A DNA stretch of 64,000 nucleotides from Escherichia coli (lineage in GTDB: Bacteria > Pseudomonadota > Gammaproteobacteria > Enterobacterales > Enterobacteriaceae), in the NCBI RefSeq assembly GCF_003790525.1, contig NZ_CP033635.1; one strand, written 5' to 3'. This document shows, one piece after another, positions 1 to 21,235 of this stretch; positions within the stretch are counted from its first letter, which is position 1; each line of letters begins with the position of its first letter. The position numbers were made by a program, and so were the translations under genes. The notes under the pieces were generated by a model, which saw only the letters and a program-made list of their open reading frames with translations, was not told where the DNA came from and did not search any database.

Positions 1-1
1 C

Positions 2-174
2 GCACTGGATATTCTGATTGCGTGGCTACAGGACAATATCGACTGCGAATCGGGAATTATCTTTGACAACGATGAGGATAGAACGGATTCGGCAGCACTG
101 TTGCCCTGTATCGAACAGGCCAGGGAGGATATCCGTATCCTGCGCCAGTTGCAGCTTCTGCAACAGAACCGGTG
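2..174 (+). CDS. 3' end of an island gene (start lies outside the window); acidic C-terminal tail, function unknown
   Basis: Frame 2 is open from the window edge to TGA at 172..174 (…ALDILIAWLQDNIDCESGIIFDNDEDRTDSAALLPCIEQAREDIRILRQLQLLQQNR*); a hairpin terminator follows. Confidence 0.45.
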
Positions 175-203
175 AGTCTTACTCACCAGACTTCATTCCA
201 CTG

Positions 204-236
204 ACGCCAGCCTGAACAGGGCTGGCGTTTTCATTT
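204..236 (+). terminator. Rho-independent terminator-like hairpin after the upstream island gene
   Basis: 9-bp perfect stem acgccagcc / ggctggcgt with 7-nt loop, followed by a T-rich tail (ttttcattt). Confidence 0.55.
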
Positions 237-259
237 ATCTGCAAAAAGGAATATCGATT

Positions 260-1126
260 ATGTCTGAAATCACAGCCCCCCGTCCGGAAGTGGTCAACGG
301 GCATACGGACGTTATCGGCTCAACCAGCATCCGCCACATTCTGGCTGTACGAAAGAGTGCGCTGCTGCAAATCGACACACTTATCCGGCAACTGGCAGAA
401 ATCTCGGTGCTGACGGAAAGCATCGGAGGTAAAACTGCACTGGACTGGGCCATGAAACAGGATTTTCGCTGCGGTTGCTGGCTGATGGAAAAACCGGAAA
501 CCGCAATGAAAGCCATCACCCGCAACCTTGACCGCGAAATCTGGCGTGATCTGATGCAACGTTCAGGGATGCTGTCATTAATGGATGCACAAGCCCGTGA
601 TACATGGTACCGGTCACTGGAGTACGATAATTTTCCGGAAATCAGCGAAGCAAATATCCTGAGCACGTTTGAACAACTGCACCAGAACAAAGATGAAGTG
701 TTTGAGCGAGGGGTGCTCAACGTTTTCAGAGGACTGAGCTGGAATTACAAAACCAATTCACCCTGCAAATTTGGCAGTAAAATTATCGTCAACAATCTGG
801 TGAGGTGGGACCGGTGGGGGTTTCATCTTATCACCGGACAACAGGCCGATCGACTTGCCGATCTGGAAAGAATGCTGCACCTGTTCAGCGGCAAACCGAT
901 CCCCGACAACCGGGAAAACATCACCATTCATCTGGATGATCACATCCAGTCTGTTCAGGGTAAAGAGGACTATGAAGATGAGATGTTCAGCATCAGATAC
1001 TTTAAGAAGGGCTCCGCGCACATCACGTTCAGGAAACCAGAGCTGGTTGACAGGCTTAATGATATTATTGCCAGACACTACCCGGAAGCCCTGGCAAGCA
1101 CAGTGAACAAAAGCCGCAAGGCATAA
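260..1126 (+). CDS. Hypothetical 288-aa island protein, function unknown (possibly DUF4942-like; unverified)
   Basis: Uninterrupted 867-nt ORF with AAGGAA ribosome-binding site 7 nt upstream of ATG; soluble-looking protein with no transmembrane segment or recognisable catalytic motif; sits between the upstream terminator and the ParDE module. Confidence 0.75.
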   Translation: MSEITAPRPEVVNGHTDVIGSTSIRHILAVRKSALLQIDTLIRQLAEISVLTESIGGKTALDWAMKQDFRCGCWLMEKPETAMKAITRNLDREIWRDLMQRSGMLSLMDAQARDTWYRSLEYDNFPEISEANILSTFEQLHQNKDEVFERGVLNVFRGLSWNYKTNSPCKFGSKIIVNNLVRWDRWGFHLITGQQADRLADLERMLHLFSGKPIPDNRENITIHLDDHIQSVQGKEDYEDEMFSIRYFKKGSAHITFRKPELVDRLNDIIARHYPEALASTVNKSRKA

Positions 1127-1165
1127 AAGAGGTATTTTACAATTCGCGAATATTAACTATTATTA

Positions 1166-1181
1166 ATTGATAGTAATCAAT
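1166..1181. promoter_or_regulatory. Palindromic putative operator in the parDE promoter region
   Basis: ATTGAT-agta-ATCAAT inverted repeat about 17 bp upstream of the parD start, next to a TATTAAT -10-like hexamer (1161..1167). Confidence 0.35.
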
Positions 1182-1197
1182 CGGCGAGAAAATAACC

Positions 1198-1461
1198 ATG
1201 CCTACCAGTGTATCCCTCAGTCCTTACTTTGAAACGTTTATCCGCGAACAAATAGAAAGTGGTCGGTACAACAATACAAGTGAAGTCATTCGTGCCGGAC
1301 TTCGTGCTCTGGAAGAACGGGAACAGCAGATAAAGCTTGAATCACTCCAGAGCGCCGTGGCCGCAGGCATCAACAGCGGTGAAAGTAAAAGTGCTGAAGA
1401 GGTATTCGGGCGACTGACGCACAAATACAAAAAGATGGCAGAAGGTGAACAGCCAATATGA
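1198..1461 (+). CDS. parD: Type II antitoxin, ParD family (ribbon-helix-helix)
   Basis: 87-aa protein MPTSVSLSPYFETFIREQIESGRYNNTSEVIRAGLRALEEREQQI… typical of ParD antitoxins; stop overlaps the next start (ATGA). Confidence 0.85.
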   Translation: MPTSVSLSPYFETFIREQIESGRYNNTSEVIRAGLRALEEREQQIKLESLQSAVAAGINSGESKSAEEVFGRLTHKYKKMAEGEQPI

Positions 1462-1784
1462 AACTGACTGTTTCACCATTAGCAGAACACGATCTTGAAG
1501 CTATAGGTGACTGGATCGCTCAGGATAATCCTGTCCGTGCAATCAGTTTTACCGAAGAGCTTTACCAACAATGTCTGTTGATAGCCGAATCGCCAGTACT
1601 CTACAGAGAAAGACCCGAGTTAGGGGCTGGGATCAGAGGTTGTTCGTATGGTCGTTACCTTCTGCTGTTCAGGGTACTGGATACTGAAGTTCGTATCGAA
1701 CGTATCGTTCATGGTTCCCGGGATATCAACAGGGTACTTGCAGAGCCAGACGACAAACCATCAGATCATTTCTGGCAGCCATAA
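1458..1784 (+). CDS. parE: Type II toxin, ParE/RelE superfamily
   Basis: 108-aa protein; 4-bp overlap with parD; size, basic C-terminal half and gene order fit a ParE toxin. Confidence 0.8.
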   Translation: MKLTVSPLAEHDLEAIGDWIAQDNPVRAISFTEELYQQCLLIAESPVLYRERPELGAGIRGCSYGRYLLLFRVLDTEVRIERIVHGSRDINRVLAEPDDKPSDHFWQP

Positions 1785-2031
1785 ACAAAATCTGTGCGTT
1801 AACGCTCCCTAACACAGGTAGCCAGGTATTTTATAAATCTCTGTATTTTGTTGTCACTTCGATTCCGCGATTCAGCATATCGAACCAGACAAAATGATTA
1901 CAACAAACCACAAGAAAGAGGGATTATAGCGTCAAAAGAATTCGAATTGCACATGGGGGCCTCATTGGTGGCCTCAAAAAGAACAAGGATAAAACAGTCG
2001 ATACAAAACAATTGGTTATATAACCAGTTTC

Positions 2032-2050
2032 ATTCCGAGTCCGGGCACCA
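2032..2050 (+). other. tRNA-Phe 3'-terminal 19-nt remnant (att core direct repeat, attR side); not a functional tRNA
   Basis: ATTCCGAGTCCGGGCACCA matches the acceptor/T-arm 3' end of E. coli tRNA-Phe including CCA; the 57 nt upstream (1975..2031) do not resemble the tRNA body. Confidence 0.8.
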
Positions 2051-2062
2051 AATTCATATAAA

Positions 2063-2088
2063 CGGACCTCCACGGAGGTCCGTTTTTC
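2063..2088 (+). terminator. Native pheU rho-independent terminator retained downstream of the tRNA remnant
   Basis: Stem cggacctc / gaggtccg with 4-nt loop followed by TTTTT, 12 nt after the CCA. Confidence 0.65.
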
Positions 2089-2666
2089 GTTTCAGGACGC
2101 CACAATTTAAGCGTTCTCCCTAAAAATCATTTCTACCGAACTCAACCAGATTCTCCCCACAACACCAGCATTTTGCGGGTATATCCCAATTCGGGGAAAT
2201 GTGTTCCTGAGCGATAGCACTGACTGACGTGAAATGTCGTGCGGCCCCGTGATGCTGTTGAACGTCAAATGACGTCATCAGGAGCGTAACGCATCCATAA
2301 AGCACAACATCGGTCTGAACGCCGACTGATAAGATTTTCTGAATGAGAACAAAGAGAAATGTATCGGTCCACTTGCTCATGCAAAGACTAACAATCCATT
2401 AAAATAGTAAGCGCTCCGGACAACTTTCCATGGATTATTTTCTGCACATTTTTCTTTGGCAAAGATGATGAATTTTGATGGTAAGGAAAATTACTTCTGG
2501 TTCTCAGTAAAATCCTTTCGTAATACTATGTAATCAAGAAGTTTATGGCGGGTAAAAATAACGTCTTGCATTCACCAATAATATGTAAATAAACCCATCT
2601 ATAGATGGAAAAAATAGATTATGGCAATTATCATTGCATCATTCCCTTTTCGAATGAGTTTCTATT

Positions 2667-4205: not shown

Positions 4206-4570
4206 GTAACTCCCGGGTTGATTTATGCTCGGGAATATTTGTTGTTGAGTTTTTGTATGTTCCTGTTGGTATAATATGTTGCGGCAATTTATTTGCCGCA
4301 TAATTTTTATTACATAAATTTAACCAGAAAATATTCCGTAATCCATTGTAAACATTGAATGTTTATCTTTTCATGATATCAACTTGCGATCCTGATGTGT
4401 TAATAAAAAACCTCAAGTTCTCACTTACAGAAACTTTTGTGTTATTTCACCTAATCTTTAGGATTAATCCTTTTTTCGTGAGTATTCTTAGCGCCAGTTT
4501 GGTCTGGTCAGGAAATAGTTATACATCATGACCCGGACTCCAAATTCAAAAATGAAATTAGGAGAAGAGC
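4206..4570 (+). promoter_or_regulatory. cadBA promoter region (Pcad) with CadC-binding sites expected
   Basis: 365-bp AT-rich spacer between cadC and cadB; individual binding sites not mapped from sequence. Confidence 0.4.
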
Positions 4571-5905
4571 ATGAGTTCTGCCAAGAAGATCGGGCTATTT
4601 GCCTGTACCGGTGTGGTTGCCGGTAATATGATGGGGAGCGGTATTGCATTATTACCTGCGAACCTAGCAAGTATCGGTGGTATTGCTATCTGGGGTTGGA
4701 TTATCTCTATTATTGGTGCAATGTCGCTGGCGTATGTATATGCCCGACTGGCAACAAAAAACCCGCAACAAGGTGGCCCAATTGCTTATGCCGGAGAAAT
4801 TTCCCCTGCATTTGGTTTTCAGACAGGTGTTCTTTATTACCATGCTAACTGGATTGGTAACCTGGCGATTGGTATTACCGCTGTATCTTATCTTTCCACC
4901 TTCTTCCCAGTATTAAATGATCCTGTTCCGGCGGGTATCGCCTGTATTGCTATCGTCTGGGTATTTACCTTTGTAAATATGCTCGGCGGTACCTGGGTAA
5001 GCCGTTTAACCACTATTGGTCTGGTGCTGGTTCTTATTCCTGTGGTAATGACAGCTATTGTTGGCTGGCATTGGTTTGATGCTGCGACTTATGCTGCTAA
5101 CTGGAATACTGCGGATACCACCGATGGTCATGCGATCATTAAAAGTATTCTGCTCTGCCTGTGGGCCTTCGTGGGTGTTGAATCCGCAGCTGTAAGTACT
5201 GGTATGGTTAAAAACCCGAAACGTACCGTTCCGCTGGCAACCATGCTGGGTACTGGTTTAGCAGGTATTGTTTACATCGCTGCGACTCAGGTGCTTTCCG
5301 GTATGTATCCGTCTTCTGTAATGGCAGCTTCCGGTGCTCCGTTTGCAATCAGTGCTTCAACTATCCTCGGTAACTGGGCTGCGCCGCTGGTTTCTGCATT
5401 CACCGCCTTTGCGTGCCTGACTTCTCTGGGCTCCTGGATGATGTTGGTAGGCCAGGCAGGTGTACGTGCCGCTAACGACGGTAACTTCCCGAAAGTTTAT
5501 GGTGAAGTCGACAGCAACGGTATTCCGAAAAAAGGTCTGCTGCTGGCTGCAGTGAAAATGACTGCCCTGATGATCCTCATCACTCTGATGAACTCTGCCG
5601 GTGGTAAAGCATCTGACCTGTTCGGTGAACTGACCGGTATCGCAGTACTGCTGACTATGCTGCCGTACTTCTACTCTTGCGTTGACCTGATTCGTTTTGA
5701 AGGCGTTAACATCCGCAACTTTGTCAGCCTGATCTGTTCTGTACTGGGTTGCGTGTTCTGCTTCATCGCGCTGATGGGCGCAAGCTCCTTCGAGCTGGCA
5801 GGTACCTTCATCGTCAGCCTGATTATCCTGATGTTCTACGCTCGCAAAATGCACGAGCGCCAGAGCCACTCAATGGATAACCACACAGCGTCTAACGCAC
5901 ATTAA
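4571..5905 (+). CDS. cadB: Lysine:cadaverine antiporter
   Basis: 444-aa polytopic APC-family transporter; conserved position between cadC and cadA. Confidence 0.95.
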   Translation: MSSAKKIGLFACTGVVAGNMMGSGIALLPANLASIGGIAIWGWIISIIGAMSLAYVYARLATKNPQQGGPIAYAGEISPAFGFQTGVLYYHANWIGNLAIGITAVSYLSTFFPVLNDPVPAGIACIAIVWVFTFVNMLGGTWVSRLTTIGLVLVLIPVVMTAIVGWHWFDAATYAANWNTADTTDGHAIIKSILLCLWAFVGVESAAVSTGMVKNPKRTVPLATMLGTGLAGIVYIAATQVLSGMYPSSVMAASGAPFAISASTILGNWAAPLVSAFTAFACLTSLGSWMMLVGQAGVRAANDGNFPKVYGEVDSNGIPKKGLLLAAVKMTALMILITLMNSAGGKASDLFGELTGIAVLLTMLPYFYSCVDLIRFEGVNIRNFVSLICSVLGCVFCFIALMGASSFELAGTFIVSLIILMFYARKMHERQSHSMDNHTASNAH

Positions 5906-5984
5906 TTAAAAGTATTTTCCGAGGCTCCTCCTTTCATTTTGTCCCATGTGTTGGGAGGGGCCTTTTTTACCTGGAGATATGACT

Positions 5985-8132
5985 ATGAACGTTATTGCAA
6001 TATTGAATCACATGGGGGTTTATTTTAAAGAAGAACCCATCCGTGAACTTCATCGCGCGCTTGAACGTCTGAACTTCCAGATTGTTTACCCGAACGACCG
6101 TGACGACTTATTAAAACTGATCGAAAACAATGCGCGTCTGTGCGGCGTTATTTTTGACTGGGATAAATATAATCTCGAGCTGTGCGAAGAAATTAGCAAA
6201 ATGAACGAGAACCTGCCGTTGTACGCGTTCGCTAATACGTATTCCACTCTCGATGTAAGCCTGAATGACCTGCGTTTACAGATTAGCTTCTTTGAATATG
6301 CGCTGGGTGCTGCTGAAGATATTGCTAATAAGATCAAGCAGACCACTGACGAATATATCAACACTATTCTGCCTCCGCTGACTAAAGCACTGTTTAAATA
6401 TGTTCGTGAAGGTAAATATACTTTCTGTACTCCTGGTCACATGGGCGGTACTGCATTCCAGAAAAGCCCGGTAGGTAGCCTGTTCTATGATTTCTTTGGT
6501 CCGAATACCATGAAATCTGATATTTCCATTTCAGTATCTGAACTGGGTTCTCTGCTGGATCACAGTGGTCCACACAAAGAAGCAGAACAGTATATCGCTC
6601 GCGTCTTTAACGCAGACCGCAGCTACATGGTGACCAACGGTACTTCCACTGCGAACAAAATTGTTGGCATGTACTCTGCTCCGGCAGGCAGCACCATTCT
6701 GATTGACCGTAACTGCCACAAATCGCTGACCCACCTGATGATGATGAGCGATGTTACGCCAATCTATTTCCGCCCGACCCGTAACGCTTACGGTATTCTT
6801 GGTGGTATCCCACAGAGTGAATTCCAGCACGCTACCATTGCTAAGCGCGTGAAAGAAACACCAAACGCAACCTGGCCGGTACATGCTGTAATTACCAACT
6901 CTACCTATGATGGTCTGCTGTACAACACCGACTTCATCAAGAAAACACTGGATGTGAAATCCATCCACTTTGACTCCGCGTGGGTGCCTTACACCAACTT
7001 CTCACCGATTTACGAAGGTAAATGCGGTATGAGCGGTGGCCGTGTAGAAGGGAAAGTGATTTACGAAACCCAGTCCACTCACAAACTGCTGGCGGCGTTC
7101 TCTCAGGCTTCCATGATCCACGTTAAAGGTGACGTAAACGAAGAAACCTTTAACGAAGCCTACATGATGCACACCACCACTTCTCCGCACTACGGTATCG
7201 TGGCGTCCACTGAAACCGCTGCGGCGATGATGAAAGGCAATGCAGGTAAACGTCTGATCAACGGTTCCATTGAACGTGCGATCAAATTCCGTAAAGAGAT
7301 CAAACGTCTGAGAACGGAATCTGATGGCTGGTTCTTTGATGTATGGCAGCCGGATCATATCGATACGACTGAATGCTGGCCGCTGCGTTCTGACAGCACC
7401 TGGCACGGCTTCAAAAACATCGATAACGAGCACATGTATCTTGACCCGATCAAAGTCACCCTGCTGACTCCGGGGATGGAAAAAGACGGCACCATGAGCG
7501 ACTTTGGTATTCCGGCCAGCATCGTGGCGAAATACCTCGACGAACATGGCATCGTTGTTGAGAAAACCGGTCCGTATAACCTGCTGTTCCTGTTCAGCAT
7601 CGGTATCGATAAGACCAAAGCACTGAGCCTGCTGCGTGCTCTGACTGACTTCAAACGTGCGTTCGACCTGAACCTGCGTGTGAAAAACATGCTGCCGTCT
7701 CTGTATCGTGAAGATCCTGAATTCTATGAAAACATGCGTATTCAGGAACTGGCTCAGAATATCCACAAACTGATTGTTCACCACAATCTGCCGGATCTGA
7801 TGTACCGCGCATTTGAAGTGCTGCCGACGATGGTAATGACTCCGTATGCTGCATTCCAGAAAGAGCTGCACGGTATGACCGAAGAAGTTTACCTCGACGA
7901 AATGGTAGGTCGTATTAACGCCAATATGATCCTTCCGTATCCGCCGGGAGTTCCTCTGGTAATGCCGGGTGAAATGATCACCGAAGAAAGCCGTCCGGTT
8001 CTGGAGTTCCTGCAGATGCTGTGTGAAATCGGCGCTCACTATCCGGGCTTTGAAACCGATATTCACGGTGCATACCGTCAGGCTGATGGCCGCTATACCG
8101 TTAAGGTATTGAAAGAAGAAAGCAAAAAATAA
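5985..8132 (+). CDS. cadA: Inducible lysine decarboxylase
   Basis: 715 aa from MNVIAILNHMGVYF…; PLP-dependent fold-type I decarboxylase with wing, core and C-terminal domains; ORF-track ORF trimmed to the recognised start. Confidence 0.95.
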   Translation: MNVIAILNHMGVYFKEEPIRELHRALERLNFQIVYPNDRDDLLKLIENNARLCGVIFDWDKYNLELCEEISKMNENLPLYAFANTYSTLDVSLNDLRLQISFFEYALGAAEDIANKIKQTTDEYINTILPPLTKALFKYVREGKYTFCTPGHMGGTAFQKSPVGSLFYDFFGPNTMKSDISISVSELGSLLDHSGPHKEAEQYIARVFNADRSYMVTNGTSTANKIVGMYSAPAGSTILIDRNCHKSLTHLMMMSDVTPIYFRPTRNAYGILGGIPQSEFQHATIAKRVKETPNATWPVHAVITNSTYDGLLYNTDFIKKTLDVKSIHFDSAWVPYTNFSPIYEGKCGMSGGRVEGKVIYETQSTHKLLAAFSQASMIHVKGDVNEETFNEAYMMHTTTSPHYGIVASTETAAAMMKGNAGKRLINGSIERAIKFRKEIKRLRTESDGWFFDVWQPDHIDTTECWPLRSDSTWHGFKNIDNEHMYLDPIKVTLLTPGMEKDGTMSDFGIPASIVAKYLDEHGIVVEKTGPYNLLFLFSIGIDKTKALSLLRALTDFKRAFDLNLRVKNMLPSLYREDPEFYENMRIQELAQNIHKLIVHHNLPDLMYRAFEVLPTMVMTPYAAFQKELHGMTEEVYLDEMVGRINANMILPYPPGVPLVMPGEMITEESRPVLEFLQMLCEIGAHYPGFETDIHGAYRQADGRYTVKVLKEESKK

Positions 8133-8190: not shown

Positions 8191-9648
8191 ATGAAAACAC
8201 CCTCACAGCCGCGCGCGATATACTATATCGTGGCGATCCAAATCTGGGAGTACTTCAGTTTTTACGGCATGCGTGCCTTACTCATTCTCTATCTCACCCA
8301 TCAGCTTGGTTTTGATGATAACCATGCCATCAGCCTGTTCAGCGCATATGCTTCTCTGGTTTACGTTACCCCTATTCTCGGCGGCTGGCTTGCCGACCGC
8401 CTGCTCGGCAACCGCACTGCAGTGATTGCCGGCGCGCTGTTAATGACCCTTGGCCATGTGGTGCTGGGCATTGATACAAATTCAACCTTTAGCCTGTATC
8501 TGGCGCTGGCAATCATTATTTGTGGCTACGGTTTATTCAAATCAAACATCAGCTGTTTGCTTGGCGAGCTCTACGACGAGAACGATCATCGACGTGATGG
8601 CGGTTTTTCGCTGCTGTATGCTGCGGGCAATATCGGTTCTATCGCAGCCCCCATCGCCTGCGGCCTGGCTGCTCAGTGGTATGGATGGCATGTTGGCTTT
8701 GCCCTTGCGGGAGGCGGCATGTTTATCGGTTTGTTGATTTTCTTAAGTGGTCATCGTCATTTCCAGTCCACGCGTAGTATGGATAAAAAAGCGCTCACTA
8801 GCGTCAAATTTGCCTTACCAGTATGGACCTGGTTAGTGGTGATGCTCTGTTTAGCCCCAGTATTTTTTACCCTGCTGCTGGAGAACGACTGGTCCGGATA
8901 TTTGCTGGCGATCGTTTGCCTCATTGCCGCACAAATCATTGCCCGCATGATGATCAAATTCCCCGAACACCGCCGTGCTCTTTGGCAAATTGTATTGTTG
9001 ATGTTTGTCGGGACGTTGTTCTGGGTACTGGCACAACAGGGCGGCAGTACCATCAGCTTGTTTATCGATCGCTTTGTGAATCGTCAGGCATTCAATATTG
9101 AAGTACCTACAGCACTATTCCAGTCGGTGAATGCTATTGCGGTGATGCTCGCTGGGGTTGTTCTGGCCTGGCTGGCGTCGCCAGAAAGCCGCGGCAATTC
9201 AGCATTGCGCGTCTGGCTGAAGTTTGCCTTTGGCTTACTGCTGATGGCTTGTGGCTTTATGTTGCTGGCATTTGATGCCCGACATGCAGCGGCTGGCGGT
9301 CAAGCGTCAATGGGCGTGATGATATCCGGGCTGGCGCTAATGGGCTTTGCTGAACTCTTTATTGACCCAGTGGCGATTGCGCAAATCACGCGTCTGAAAA
9401 TGTCTGGCGTATTAACCGGTATTTATATGCTGGCAACAGGCGCGGTCGCCAACTGGCTGGCAGGCGTCGTGGCACAGCAGACGACAGAGTCGCAAATTAG
9501 CGGTATGGCAATTGCCGCTTACCAGCGATTCTTTTCTCAGATGGGAGAGTGGACGTTGGCTTGTGTCGCGATCATCGTGGTATTGGCCTTTGCTACCCGT
9601 TTTCTGTTTAGCACGCCGACGAATATGATACAGGAGAGCAACGATTAA
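8191..9648 (+). CDS. dtpC: Proton-dependent dipeptide/tripeptide permease (POT family)
   Basis: 485-aa MFS/POT transporter; matches E. coli DtpC (YjdL) in sequence and position. Confidence 0.92.
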
Positions 9649-9884: not shown

Positions 9885-11402
9885 ATGTCTGAACGAGAAA
9901 CACGGGGAGCCAATGAGGCTATTGATTTTAACGATGAACTGAGAAATCGCCGCGAAAAACTGGCGGCACTACGTCAGCAAGGTGTGGCGTTTCCCAATGA
10001 TTTTCGCCGCGACCATACCTCTGACCAGTTGCACGACGAGTTTGATGCGAAGGATAACCAGGAACTGGAATCCTTAAACATTGAAGTCTCGGTTGCTGGC
10101 CGAATGATGACCCGTCGTATTATGGGGAAAGCCTCCTTTGTAACGTTGCAGGATGTCGGTGGCCGTATTCAACTGTACGTTGCAAGAGATAGCCTGCCAG
10201 AAGGTGTTTATAACGATCAGTTTAAAAAATGGGATCTGGGTGACATTATCGGTGCCCGCGGTACGCTGTTTAAGACGCAAACGGGTGAGCTTTCCATTCA
10301 CTGTACTGAGCTGCGCCTGCTGACTAAAGCACTACGTCCTTTACCAGATAAATTCCATGGTCTGCAGGATCAGGAAGTCCGTTATCGTCAACGTTATCTG
10401 GACCTCATCGCTAACGATAAATCCCGTCAAACGTTTGTTGTCCGTTCAAAAATTCTGGCCGCTATCCGTCAGTTCATGGTCGCGCGCGGCTTTATGGAAG
10501 TAGAAACCCCGATGATGCAGGTAATTCCAGGTGGGGCATCTGCTCGCCCGTTTATTACCCATCATAACGCTCTGGATTTAGATATGTACCTGCGTATCGC
10601 GCCGGAGCTGTATCTGAAACGTCTGGTTGTAGGCGGTTTTGAACGGGTATTCGAAATCAACCGTAACTTCCGTAATGAAGGTATTTCTGTTCGCCATAAT
10701 CCTGAGTTCACAATGATGGAACTCTACATGGCATATGCGGATTACCATGATTTGATTGAACTGACGGAGTCACTGTTCCGCACCCTGGCACAAGAGGTAC
10801 TGGGTACCACTAAAGTCACTTATGGCGAGCATGTGTTTGATTTCGGCAAACCGTTTGAAAAACTCACCATGCGCGAAGCAATCAAAAAATATCGTCCAGA
10901 AACCGATATGGCGGATCTGGATAATTTTGATGCTGCTAAAGCATTAGCTGAATCTATCGGAATTACGGTAGAGAAAAGCTGGGGGCTGGGACGTATTGTC
11001 ACAGAGATCTTTGATGAAGTGGCAGAAGCACATCTGATTCAGCCAACCTTTATTACGGAATATCCGGCAGAAGTGTCCCCGCTGGCGCGCCGTAATGATG
11101 TTAACCCGGAAATCACCGACCGTTTTGAATTCTTCATCGGTGGTCGTGAAATTGGTAATGGTTTTAGCGAATTAAACGACGCAGAAGATCAGGCTGAACG
11201 TTTCCAGGAACAGGTTAACGCTAAAGCTGCAGGTGACGACGAAGCCATGTTCTATGACGAAGATTACGTGACTGCGCTGGAATATGGTCTGCCGCCAACC
11301 GCTGGTCTGGGTATTGGTATCGACCGAATGATTATGCTGTTTACTAACAGCCATACTATTCGCGACGTTATTCTCTTCCCGGCGATGCGCCCACAGAAAT
11401 AA
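9885..11402 (+). CDS. lysU: Lysyl-tRNA synthetase, inducible isoform
   Basis: 505 aa from MSERETRG…; class II aaRS motifs; located next to the cad locus as for lysU. Confidence 0.93.
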
Positions 11403-12940: not shown

Positions 12941-14572
12941 ATGAGACATTCATTGCCCTACCGTATGTTACGCAAACGTCCGATGAAATTGAGTACCACT
13001 GTGATCTTAATGGTCAGCGCGGTACTGTTCTCGGTGCTATTGGTGGTGCATCTGATTTACTTCTCGCAAATCAGTGATATGACGCGAGACGGGCTAGCTA
13101 ACAAGGCACTGGCAGTAGCGCGTACCCTCGCCGACTCGCCGGAAATCCGGCAGGGCTTGCAGAAAAAACCGCAGGAGAGCGGCATCCAGGCCATCGCGGA
13201 AGCCGTGCGCAAACGCAACGATCTGCTATTTATTGTCGTTACCGATATGCAAAGTCTTCGCTACTCGCATCCTGAAGCCCAGCGTATTGGTCAGCCATTT
13301 AAAGGTGATGACATCCTTAAAGCGCTGAATGGCGAAGAAAATGTCGCTATCAATCGCGGTTTTCTGGCGCAGGCTTTACGCGTATTTACCCCCATCTACG
13401 ATGAAAATCATAAACAAATTGGCGTGGTGGCGATCGGCCTTGAGTTAAGTCGCGTGACCCAACAGATCAATGACAGTCGCTGGAGCATCATCTGGTCGGT
13501 ATTATTTGGCATGCTGGTCGGGCTGATTGGCACCTGCATTCTGGTTAAGGTACTGAAAAAAATCCTTTTCGGCCTGGAACCCTACGAAATCTCCACGCTG
13601 TTTGAGCAACGCCAGGCCATGTTGCAGTCTATCAAAGAAGGCGTCGTTGCCGTGGACGATCGCGGCGAAGTCACGCTGATCAACGATGCCGCACAAGAAT
13701 TGCTGAATTACCGTAAGTCGCAGGACGATGAGAAGCTGTCGACGCTAAGCCACGCGTGGTCACAGGTAGTAGATGTCTCGGAAGTGTTACGCGACGGTAC
13801 CCCGCGCCGCGACGAAGAGATTACGATTAAAGACCGGCTATTACTGATCAACACCGTTCCGGTGCGCAGTAATGGCGTTATCATCGGTGCCATTTCAACC
13901 TTCAGGGACAAAACTGAAGTACGTAAACTGATGCAGCGACTCGATGGTCTGGTCAACTATGCTGACGCACTTCGTGAACGATCCCACGAATTTATGAATA
14001 AATTGCACGTGATTCTCGGATTATTGCATCTGAAGAGTTATAAGCAGTTGGAAGATTACATTCTCAAAACAGCCAATAACTATCAGGAAGAGATTGGCTC
14101 TCTGCTGGGTAAGATCAAATCTCCGGTTATCGCTGGTTTTTTAATCAGCAAGATTAACCGCGCGACCGATTTAGGCCATACGCTGATTTTAAACAGTGAA
14201 AGCCAGCTGCCAGACAGCGGTAGTGAGGATCAGGTCGCGACGCTGATTACCACGTTGGGAAATCTGATAGAAAACGCGCTGGAGGCATTAGGGCCGGAAC
14301 CCGGAGGCGAAATTAGCGTAACATTGCACTACCGTCACGGCTGGCTGCACTGTGAAGTTAACGATGATGGACCGGGGATCGCACCCGACAAAATCGATCA
14401 CATTTTTGACAAAGGTGTCTCGACAAAAGGAAGCGAGCGAGGCGTCGGTTTAGCACTTGTCAAACAACAGGTAGAAAATCTCGGCGGCAGCATCGCCGTG
14501 GAATCGGAACCCGGGATTTTCACACAATTTTTTGTCCAGATACCCTGGGACGGGGAGAGGTCGAACAGATGA
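12941..14572 (+). CDS. dcuS: C4-dicarboxylate sensor histidine kinase
   Basis: 543 aa; two transmembrane segments flanking a periplasmic PAS-type sensor domain, cytoplasmic PAS and HisKA/HATPase domains. Confidence 0.95.
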   Translation: MRHSLPYRMLRKRPMKLSTTVILMVSAVLFSVLLVVHLIYFSQISDMTRDGLANKALAVARTLADSPEIRQGLQKKPQESGIQAIAEAVRKRNDLLFIVVTDMQSLRYSHPEAQRIGQPFKGDDILKALNGEENVAINRGFLAQALRVFTPIYDENHKQIGVVAIGLELSRVTQQINDSRWSIIWSVLFGMLVGLIGTCILVKVLKKILFGLEPYEISTLFEQRQAMLQSIKEGVVAVDDRGEVTLINDAAQELLNYRKSQDDEKLSTLSHAWSQVVDVSEVLRDGTPRRDEEITIKDRLLLINTVPVRSNGVIIGAISTFRDKTEVRKLMQRLDGLVNYADALRERSHEFMNKLHVILGLLHLKSYKQLEDYILKTANNYQEEIGSLLGKIKSPVIAGFLISKINRATDLGHTLILNSESQLPDSGSEDQVATLITTLGNLIENALEALGPEPGGEISVTLHYRHGWLHCEVNDDGPGIAPDKIDHIFDKGVSTKGSERGVGLALVKQQVENLGGSIAVESEPGIFTQFFVQIPWDGERSNR

Positions 14573-19813: not shown

Positions 19814-21235
19814 TCAGGCTTTCACATCACTCACTGCACCGACCGGAATATCAGCATGAACAGGCTCGGGCGGTACTTTGCGATATTTATCCAGCAGATG
19901 GATCTGGATCCTGCGCAGCGTGTCACCATTGAGGCGATAGAAACGGAAGTAGAGAATCAGCGTTACCATGAAAAACAGAGTGGGTAGAGCAATCATAATA
20001 AACTGCATACCTAATAGGGCTTGCGTAGACTGTTCAACATTCGGTACATAGCCAATCATCCCTAACACAACCGCAATGAAAAAAGCCGCAAAGGCTGAAC
20101 CGCCCTTCACCACCATAGTCTGCACGGAGTAAGCGATGCTTTCACAGCGTACGTGCAGTTTATATTCACCGTAATCAACGGTATCTGCCACCATGATGAC
20201 CTGTAATACCCAGAAAAGCGCCGTTCCCACATTCAGCAAAATACCCGCAATCACAATGAGGACGACGTTGTGATAGCTCATTAATGCCATTAACAGGAGA
20301 ACACCACAGCTTAACACCGGAAGAATAGATGCTCCGGCCCATAAAATGCGTCGGGATAATGATTTAACTAAGCGTGGGAAGAATACTAACGTCACCAGGT
20401 TAGCAGCTCCCGCATACGACAGATAATAGGGGAACAAATCCGCATCACCGATAACATATGAGAAATAATAGATAGCAAAGCCGGTAATAATATTGCTGGC
20501 TACATTATAAGCAAGAGCCATACCCAAGAGGCATGAAAGCTGATCGTTTTTATAAATAAGCGCAACGATGGCTTTAAGTGTCAGATGGCTTCCTTCAGCA
20601 GACGGCTGATTGTCTGACGAAAAGACTTCATGCACATTGCGCAGAGTGATGATGGTTGAAACAATAAAAAAGGCGATCAGTACCAGAGTGAACATCTGAA
20701 AGCCAAATCCCCGATCGCCACCGCCGACATAATTAACAAATGGTAGCGTCACACCTGCCGTAACAAAGCCCGCCAGACTGGCAAAAAAACGCGGATAAGG
20801 AACCAGTTGTTCGCGCTCACGTTTATCGAGCGTTATGGTTGGAACCAGCGACCAGAAGGGAATATCCATAATGGTGTAAGTCATGCCCCAGAGGATGTAG
20901 GTCACGCAAACAAAGACAATCTGAGTAGTACCTTCAAACAGATGCGCACTAAAGAGGAGAAATAAGATTACAGAGTTTGCCAACGTACCGATCAGGATCC
21001 AGGGTTTGAACTTACCCCATCGCGATCGCGTAGCATTTACAATCCATCCCATAATCGGATCGTTAATAGCATCCCAGATCCTCGCCACCAGAAACAAAGT
21101 ACCGACCAAACCCACAGACAGTCCGACGACATCGGTGTAGTAATACATGAGATACATATACACAATGCCGATCGCAAAATCCTTCCCGAACGCTCCAAAT
21201 CCATAACTGAGTTTTGTAGTCATTGAAATGCTCAT
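19814..21235 (-). CDS. melB: Melibiose:cation symporter
   Basis: 473 aa from [20 protein letters not shown]…; GPH-family transporter. Confidence 0.95.

Follow-up and report, generated by a model that had tools for sequence, protein, structure and literature searches.

A DUF4942 gene closing a conserved island module of Escherichia coli is homologous to plasmid leading-region genes and may encode an establishment or counter-restriction factor

Samuel et al. 2024 (Nature) list DUF4942 as an uncharacterised family enriched in plasmid leading regions. In their Supplementary Table 1 it appears as family 24 (2,171 members, false discovery rate p = 0, median open reading frame (ORF) index 1 from oriT, T-strand orientation) and as family 76 (551 members), and Foldseek matched it to none of the known anti-restriction or anti-CRISPR structures (entered as '2171 NA'). 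Here we analysed a DUF4942 gene of Escherichia coli, which lies at positions 260..1126 on the forward strand of a 64,000-nucleotide stretch of contig NZ_CP033635.1 (the window) and which a sequence-only reading had presented as an undescribed cargo gene of a genomic island, next to a ParDE module. No new entity was found. The gene is annotated and the family catalogued: RefSeq contains the exact protein, Pfam includes the family and the leading-region enrichment has been published, so the gene cannot be called undescribed. From its relatives, architecture and context, we tentatively favour a reading in which DUF4942 would be a non-catalytic factor for establishment or counter-restriction that acts soon after DNA has entered or been mobilised, most likely as a nucleic-acid or substrate-targeting module.

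The closest described counterparts are YdiA of F-like plasmids and YgfB of IncI plasmids (families 24 and 76), which belong to the same Pfam family, are likewise standalone proteins of about 270-290 amino acids (aa), share 30-40% identity with the window protein over 92-100% of its length and carry the same invariant residues. They differ in setting: the plasmid genes stand at a median ORF index of 1 from oriT, and the IncI gene lies behind a repeat resembling ssi/Frpo elements, whereas the window gene is chromosomal and lies behind a terminator-like hairpin. KlcA/ArdB and ArdA are co-resident and co-oriented with DUF4942 in the same leading regions and in the island module, and they too are small standalone proteins, but they show no sequence or fold similarity to it; ArdA is a strongly acidic DNA mimic whereas DUF4942 is near neutral, and an anti-restriction role for DUF4942 is only putative. 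Another set of relatives is formed by fusions of DUF4942 to a methyltransferase (MTase), namely phrog_6263, proteins of phage SSU5, Aeromonas phage vB_AsaM-56 and Pseudomonas phage phiPSA1, and WP_075700131.1, in which the N-terminal 270-300 residues are homologous throughout and keep the same conserved core. The fusions differ in an extra C-terminal MTase of gamma order and about 180 aa (FxTP, EPxxGxG, NPPF; NPSY in the SSU5-like form), some also having a middle domain of about 90 aa, while the window protein ends where the MTase would begin.

The gene is an intact 288-aa ORF with an ATG start and is the sole long ORF in its stretch; it and its immediate surroundings comprise the following features.

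2..175, forward strand: 3' end of the upstream DUF957 gene (57 codons plus stop), the penultimate gene of the module, assigned from its frame and the annotation of strain XDL
203..239, forward strand: terminator-like hairpin with an interrupted T-run, between DUF957 and DUF4942
246..250, forward strand: Shine-Dalgarno-like AAGGA, 9 nt 5' of the ATG
260..1126, forward strand: DUF4942 gene, 288 aa plus stop, encoding a protein identical to WP_032153714.1
260..517, forward strand: N-terminal extension, aa 1-86, outside the Pfam model and conserved in the family, including MTase-fused members
518..1087, forward strand: Pfam DUF4942 domain, aa 87-276, with a helical bundle (residues 79-159) and a beta/alpha sub-domain (174-273)
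1088..1126, forward strand: allele-specific C-terminal tail, from the protein alignment; DNA similarity to paralogues without ParDE ends at about ORF position 820-830

Membership of the DUF4942 family, which the sequence-only reading had suspected, is near certain: PF13708 matches aa 87-276 over the full length of the model (positions 1-190 of 190; 233 bits, E 2.6e-69), and there is no other Pfam match. The first 2.4 kb of the window are 100% identical to E. coli strain XDL, and RefSeq names the identical protein WP_032153714.1 'DUF4942 domain-containing protein'. Close relatives carry older names ('restriction methylase', 'restriction endonuclease subunit M', Aec79, L0010 in the EDL933 LEE flank and SRL-PAI orf56), and the family goes by the aliases YdiA, YgfB and L0010. 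No function is assigned to the protein in any library searched: NCBIfam gave no match, PADLOC-DB 2.0 gave 0 defence families at E <= 0.01, and the PHROGs matches were two unknown-function families and the 'DNA methyltransferase' family phrog_6263, of which positions 81-290 of 548, in the N-terminal half of the profile, were matched.

The clean ORF with a ribosome-binding site described by the sequence-only reading holds up, as does the lack of any recognisable catalytic or nucleotide-binding motif. In particular, the S-adenosylmethionine (SAM)-binding motif I (FxGxG-like) and motif IV (D/N)PP(Y/F) are both absent from the window protein, as is any methyltransferase Pfam match. W95, D201, H254 and N267 are invariant among 63 sequences at 27-56% identity, the motif LSWxYKTNxP is present at residues 159-168, and the core common to standalone and fused members consists of W95, P126, T136/F137, LSWxYKTN, D201-L-x-R204, H254, N267, P275 and the N-terminal helix. 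Within the N-terminal extension, residues 1-22 are low-confidence or disordered and residues 24-53 form a long helix, with S21 and R31 near-invariant. A confident AlphaFold2 model built with the 63-sequence alignment (mean predicted local distance difference test score 88.5, predicted template-modelling (TM) score 0.80) resembled no fold, solved or predicted, beyond those of its own family; Foldseek against the PDB returned nothing below E 0.24, and neither phmmer nor profile hmmsearch gave a PDB match. The structure-based search thus yielded no match to a well-characterised family, and within the libraries searched the predicted fold is confined to DUF4942. The protein contains 40 acidic and 39 basic residues; its isoelectric point (pI) is 6.8, against a family median of 7.2, and its C-terminal half is basic (pI 9.1). 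A DNA-mimic anti-restriction protein of the ArdA/Ocr type was considered and rejected because of this near-neutral pI, and no ArdA or Ocr fold or sequence match was obtained. A 2H-phosphoesterase, suggested by an HxTF motif and weak Foldseek matches to CNPase, was likewise rejected (E > 1, TM about 0.1, and a single HxT where the fold needs two).

The standalone gene is under purifying selection, as judged from sequence comparison of the window gene with five paralogues, for which the Nei-Gojobori ratio of nonsynonymous to synonymous divergence (dN/dS) is 0.09-0.16 at dS 0.33-0.65. Because of these values the gene is not a decaying fragment, and the possibility that it is a pseudogene in related strains falls away. 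The copies in paralogous islands are 81-94% identical in protein sequence and share the same upstream genes (CbeA, CbtA, DUF5983 and DUF957), hairpin and ribosome-binding site; the window allele differs in a C-terminal tail that is 7-8 residues longer and allele-specific, and in having parDE downstream. Most DNA matches cover positions 1 to 820..831 of the ORF query, so that similarity to the other paralogues breaks off about 40 nt short of the stop codon. A separate variant segment therefore takes in the last ~13 codons, parDE and the island end (to 2050). Window positions 1-2400 are covered to at least 80% in 468 genomes, the ORF to at least 80% in 3,634.

Counting copies at >= 80% DNA identity, the DUF4942 gene occurs in 3,933 of the 5,426 complete E. 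coli genomes (72%), with a median of 2 and a maximum of 7 copies, almost all of them chromosomal. It closes a conserved backbone module of 8-10 genes, in the order antirestriction, RadC/JAB, DUF987, CbeA, CbtA, DUF5983, DUF957, DUF4942, which recurs at several tRNA-linked insertion sites; it belongs to the module backbone and is not island cargo. It had been described as the only sizeable cargo gene at this island end; in the identical strain XDL the cargo lies further upstream. In this strain the co-oriented run reads GTPase, hypothetical, DUF905, DUF932, antirestriction, RadC, DUF987, CbeA, CbtA, DUF5983, DUF957 and DUF4942, followed by ParD, ParE and the island end. Between 20 and 60 kb upstream of the window start, XDL carries a type I restriction-modification (R-M) system with an AAA ATPase, a dGTPase-family protein, a MazG-like protein and a thymidylate synthase, together with a resistance block of floR, tetA, strAB and sul2, a mosaic island mixing defence and resistance genes. 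The same module also precedes the five diverged paralogues found at other insertion sites, and the downstream neighbours across the paralogous islands are ParDE with a full integrase, tRNA-Ser, an EAL protein, gsp genes or yicL. Conservation of the gene neighbourhood, which the sequence-only reading had proposed to check, thus extends to the upstream module but not to the ParDE neighbour. Single-member database clusters join DUF4942 to Antirestrict, CbtA, DUF932, RadC, GTPase or integrase domains (P0007, P0028-P0032, P0044, P0049, P0077); rather than being real fusions, these most likely arose where gene calling or assembly joined paralogous island modules.

On plasmids, tblastn finds homologues in 4,888 of the 72,556 PLSDB entries (~7%), of which 4,002 are predicted to be conjugative, at 30-40% identity; the matches typically show 32-39% identity over 92-100% of the query and are annotated DUF4942 or ygfB. 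These homologues adjoin oriT and are oriented so that they can be transcribed from the single strand as it comes in; conjugative plasmids carry the family among the genes that reach a new host first. On an IncI-type plasmid the DUF4942 gene lies ~650 bp upstream of nikA and is co-oriented with ardA, psiA, psiB, a ParB-like gene, DUF905, ssb, klcA and a methylase; on pOXA-48 it shares a block of co-oriented genes, upstream of mobA-traI, with klcA and ssb; and on a third plasmid the order is PsiB, PsiA, MqsRA, ArdA and then DUF4942. Phage homologues are present in 55 of 50,697 records, mostly in the fused 'DNA methyltransferase' form, and standalone members from metagenomes are placed in phage early regions. 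Two other leading-region proteins were compared and set aside: M.EcoGIX, the methyltransferase of pESBL acting on single-stranded DNA (ssDNA), is a different protein, and YfjB/HerB, an 'uncharacterised leading-region protein' of a 2026 preprint, is a ParB-like CTP-binding protein of a different family.

Three repeats of ~300 nt, 80-82% identical, lie in the IncI leading region, just upstream of ssb, just after ardA and directly upstream of DUF4942 (positions 4378-4675, 10723-11020 and 13614-13965 of locus L003 of pC59-112; further copies at 5757-6054 and 8613-8965 of locus L023). The 352 nt directly upstream of the IncI DUF4942 gene fold on the transferred strand at -98.2 kcal/mol, compared with -62.1 +/- 4.7 for shuffled sequences (z = -7.7). 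Three class-1 ssi/Frpo ssDNA promoters are reported for IncI1 plasmids, and in pESBL they drive the most strongly zygotically induced operons (PMC12672017). The three repeats probably correspond to these elements (ssi1-3), and the IncI DUF4942 homologue would then be expressed from the incoming single strand.

The wider family, obtained by an exhaustive search of 1.84 billion representatives, comprises 2,280 clusters at 50% identity (E <= 1e-3), most of them standalone proteins of 260-290 aa; among the 150 best representatives, 5 are fused, at 460-560 aa. The C-terminal domain of ~180 aa in these fused members carries FPTP, VLEPSAGxG and NPPF in gamma-class order and gives Pfam matches to MTS/Methyltransf, although its best PDB sequence matches, M.TaqI (E 0.045) and HemK (E 0.2), are weak. 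The same MTase module is found in giant polyvalent phage proteins (1,300-3,900 profile positions). Fused members fall at at least three places in a neighbour-joining tree, which is star-like and without support values and thus gives only a weak hint. The most divergent fused members (21% identity; WP_075700131.1 of pLR-46_1, locus L004 8746-10431, and SSU5-like phage-plasmids) have NPSY in place of NPPF/Y at motif IV, so that their MTase may be altered or inactive, and carry the extra middle domain of ~90 aa, which is also found in P0269. On one metagenomic contig (locus L010, 432-1295 and 1445-3124) a paralogous MTase-module gene, which corresponds to the C-terminal half of phrog_6263 (E 2.5e-15), stands directly upstream of a DUF4942-MTase fusion, with H-NS-like and 2H-phosphoesterase (LigT) genes as neighbours.

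A split two-subunit enzyme was also considered. Searching with five fused MTase domains (tblastn) against the window, the island, pOXA-48, IncI and other plasmid or phage loci with standalone DUF4942 revealed no separate cognate MTase near the standalone gene, the only motif match being an unrelated MTase type ~2.3 kb away in locus L018; no MTase remnant was found in the window. The small 'DNA methylase' encoded in the IncI leading region was rejected as a partner as well: that enzyme is of the beta class (DPPY N-terminal, FAGSGS C-terminal), not of the gamma order of the fused domain.

As for how the chromosomal gene might be expressed, no sigma70-like site was found upstream of the ORF in a consensus scan. 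The hairpin that had been noted before the gene is real and its distance was roughly right, its stem ending a measured 30 nt before the ATG rather than about 25 bp. The stem (203-229) has 11 pairs, 7 of them G-C, and is followed by TTCATTTATC; as RNA, 170-275 folds more stably than shuffled sequences do (z = -3.9). Across all six paralogous intergenic regions the stem GCCAGCC/GGCTGGC is kept while the loop varies, stem changes being limited to pairing-compatible ones (G-U or A-U), and the ribosome-binding site is kept in the five paralogous islands as AAAGGA or AAGGGA. In strain XDL, RefSeq places a DUF957 domain-containing protein at 19978-20175 of the compared locus (L001). In the window, a second small hairpin, GGTGAGT-CTT-ACTCACC (171-187), overlaps the DUF957 stop codon directly 5' of the terminator-like hairpin and is partly conserved in paralogues. 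We infer that the larger hairpin acts as a terminator or attenuator. Since a sigma70-like site is missing upstream and the hairpin is conserved 30 nt before the start, expression of the chromosomal copy by read-through after DUF957, as the sequence-only reading had proposed, is plausible, and an imperfect terminator conserved directly before a conserved ribosome-binding site would fit such expression at a low level.

Downstream of the DUF4942 gene, the toxin-antitoxin module and the island end contain the following features.

1136..1163, forward strand: sigma70-like promoter TTTACA-16-TATTAT before parD, a consensus match only
1198..1461, forward strand: parD (TIGR02606, E 5.7e-28)
1458..1784, forward strand: relE/parE-family toxin gene, whose start overlaps the parD stop
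2030..2050, forward strand: 3'-terminal tRNA-like remnant ATTCCGAGTCCGGGCACCA, ~19 nt, at the island end
2060..2085, forward strand: terminator-like hairpin, from a hairpin scan
2248..2407: integrase pseudogene fragment upstream of cadC, annotated in XDL

The DUF4942 gene does lie directly upstream of a toxin-antitoxin module, as the sequence-only reading had stated, with 71 bp between its stop codon and parD. The AT-rich interval 1136-1197 combines the sigma70-like promoter with an imperfect inverted repeat, ATTAACTAT .. ATAGTAAT, and looks like a typical operator for ParD autoregulation. ParDE is nevertheless an incidental neighbour outside the module, because the four other paralogous islands have different downstream neighbours. 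No complete tRNA was found in the window; the remnant at 2030..2050 is probably the 3' end of tRNA-Phe (pheU/pheV). Together, the tRNA remnant, the hairpin and the integrase fragment before cadC indicate that the window starts inside a tRNA-linked island that ends near 2050, beyond which lie cadC-cadB-cadA. In the O55:H7 strain DEC5E (locus L011, 4260-4330 and 4489-5754), a full-length tyrosine integrase comes after the same junction. This suggests that islands lay in tandem and that in the lineage of the window the second one decayed.

How the protein might act has to be weighed from these comparisons. In the reading that we tentatively prefer, the DUF4942 protein would serve as a targeting module for nucleic acid or another substrate and would act early, after DNA entry or mobilisation, the chromosomal copy being transcribed through the weak terminator-like hairpin after DUF957. 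A targeting role is favoured because the same module is N-terminally fused to a minimal gamma-type N6-adenine MTase that has no recognition domain of its own, and because DUF4942 is the only other conserved part of the fused proteins. Several points weigh against this reading. The logic of early entry is carried over from plasmid homologues that are only 30-40% identical, since the window copy is chromosomal, has no relaxase gene or oriT annotated within ~60 kb upstream in the identical strain XDL, and lacks the ssDNA-promoter repeat, of which there is no copy in the window or in the XDL locus L001, the window gene having only its 11-bp hairpin. The window gene is thus a homologue of leading-region genes and not itself a leading-region gene. 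Standalone members have no cognate MTase nearby, the ~15 conserved polar residues could equally mark the active site of an enzyme, and the literature yielded no experiments on any DUF4942 member, only passing mentions. A bolder extension, which we consider doubtful, is that DUF4942 is a counter-defence or establishment effector of new fold, encoded by the second ORF that recipients receive from thousands of conjugative plasmids, and that the modules of CP4-type islands, found in about 72% of E. coli genomes, are chromosomally fixed 'leading regions' in which it still acts; its task there might be to protect or label DNA that comes in or is excised, or to direct a methyltransferase in trans to new targets.

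The same fusions could instead reflect the habit of 'polyvalent proteins' and say nothing of targeting, in which case DUF4942 might bind and inhibit a host protein of defence or repair, such as an R-M or other immunity complex. Its leading-region and early-phage-region context is that of known inhibitors, the fused MTase module also turns up in the giant polyvalent phage proteins, standalone forms far outnumber fused ones, the fused members are scattered in the (unsupported) tree, and the model has no structural likeness to any DNA-binding domain. The protein is, however, not acidic or DNA-mimic-like, the Foldseek comparison of Samuel et al. 2024 gave no match to anti-restriction or anti-CRISPR structures, and a fused MTase of ~180 aa without a recognition domain argues that DUF4942 supplies one; we therefore regard an inhibitor as unlikely. 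A new-fold enzyme, for example a nucleic-acid-modifying or hydrolytic one with a site drawn from D91, S160, Y163, K164, T165, N166, D201, R204, H254 and N267, would account for invariant polar residues that are unusually many for a 36%-identity family and common to standalone and fused members, and with a fold confined to the family no precedent excludes catalysis; yet no catalytic motif of a known class is recognised and the HxTF/CNPase lead fails, which leaves an enzyme distinctly unlikely. Less probable by far is a phage-defence gene or a third functional partner of ParDE, an idea suggested by the position next to ParDE at the island end and by the defence genes that such islands carry (type I R-M and dGTPase upstream in XDL). 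PADLOC gives no match, ParDE follows DUF4942 in one island type only (468 versus 3,634 genomes; elsewhere tRNA-Ser, an EAL protein or core genes follow), parD has its own promoter-like site, and the plasmid homologues stand among counter-defence genes and not among defence genes. What remains of the defence, anti-defence or maintenance context proposed by the sequence-only reading is that anti-defence or maintenance is plausible, given plasmid homologues among ardA, klcA, psiB and ssb. Finally, the older methylase names and the existence of fused full-length MTases might make the ORF a decayed remnant of a DUF4942-methyltransferase, or a plain 'restriction methylase', without a function of its own. 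This reading keeps hardly any credibility, the dN/dS values and the lack of MTase motifs having effectively refuted it: Pfam reports DUF4942 only, selection is strongly purifying, the standalone form is the norm across the 2,280 clusters, and no MTase remnant lies in the window, where parD follows so closely on the stop codon.

The present analysis links the chromosomal island module to plasmid leading regions, adds purifying selection on the chromosomal copies, an orphan fold and an ssDNA-promoter repeat directly upstream of the IncI homologue, and rejects the readings as a methylase, a ParDE partner or a DNA mimic. Should the functional inference hold, DUF4942 would be among the most widespread uncharacterised plasmid-entry factors, with a fold of no known relative, carried by about 7% of PLSDB plasmids, mostly conjugative resistance plasmids of Enterobacteriaceae including pOXA-48 and IncI/IncF, and present in multiple copies in most E. 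coli chromosomes. Its function would then bear on the establishment of resistance plasmids in new hosts.

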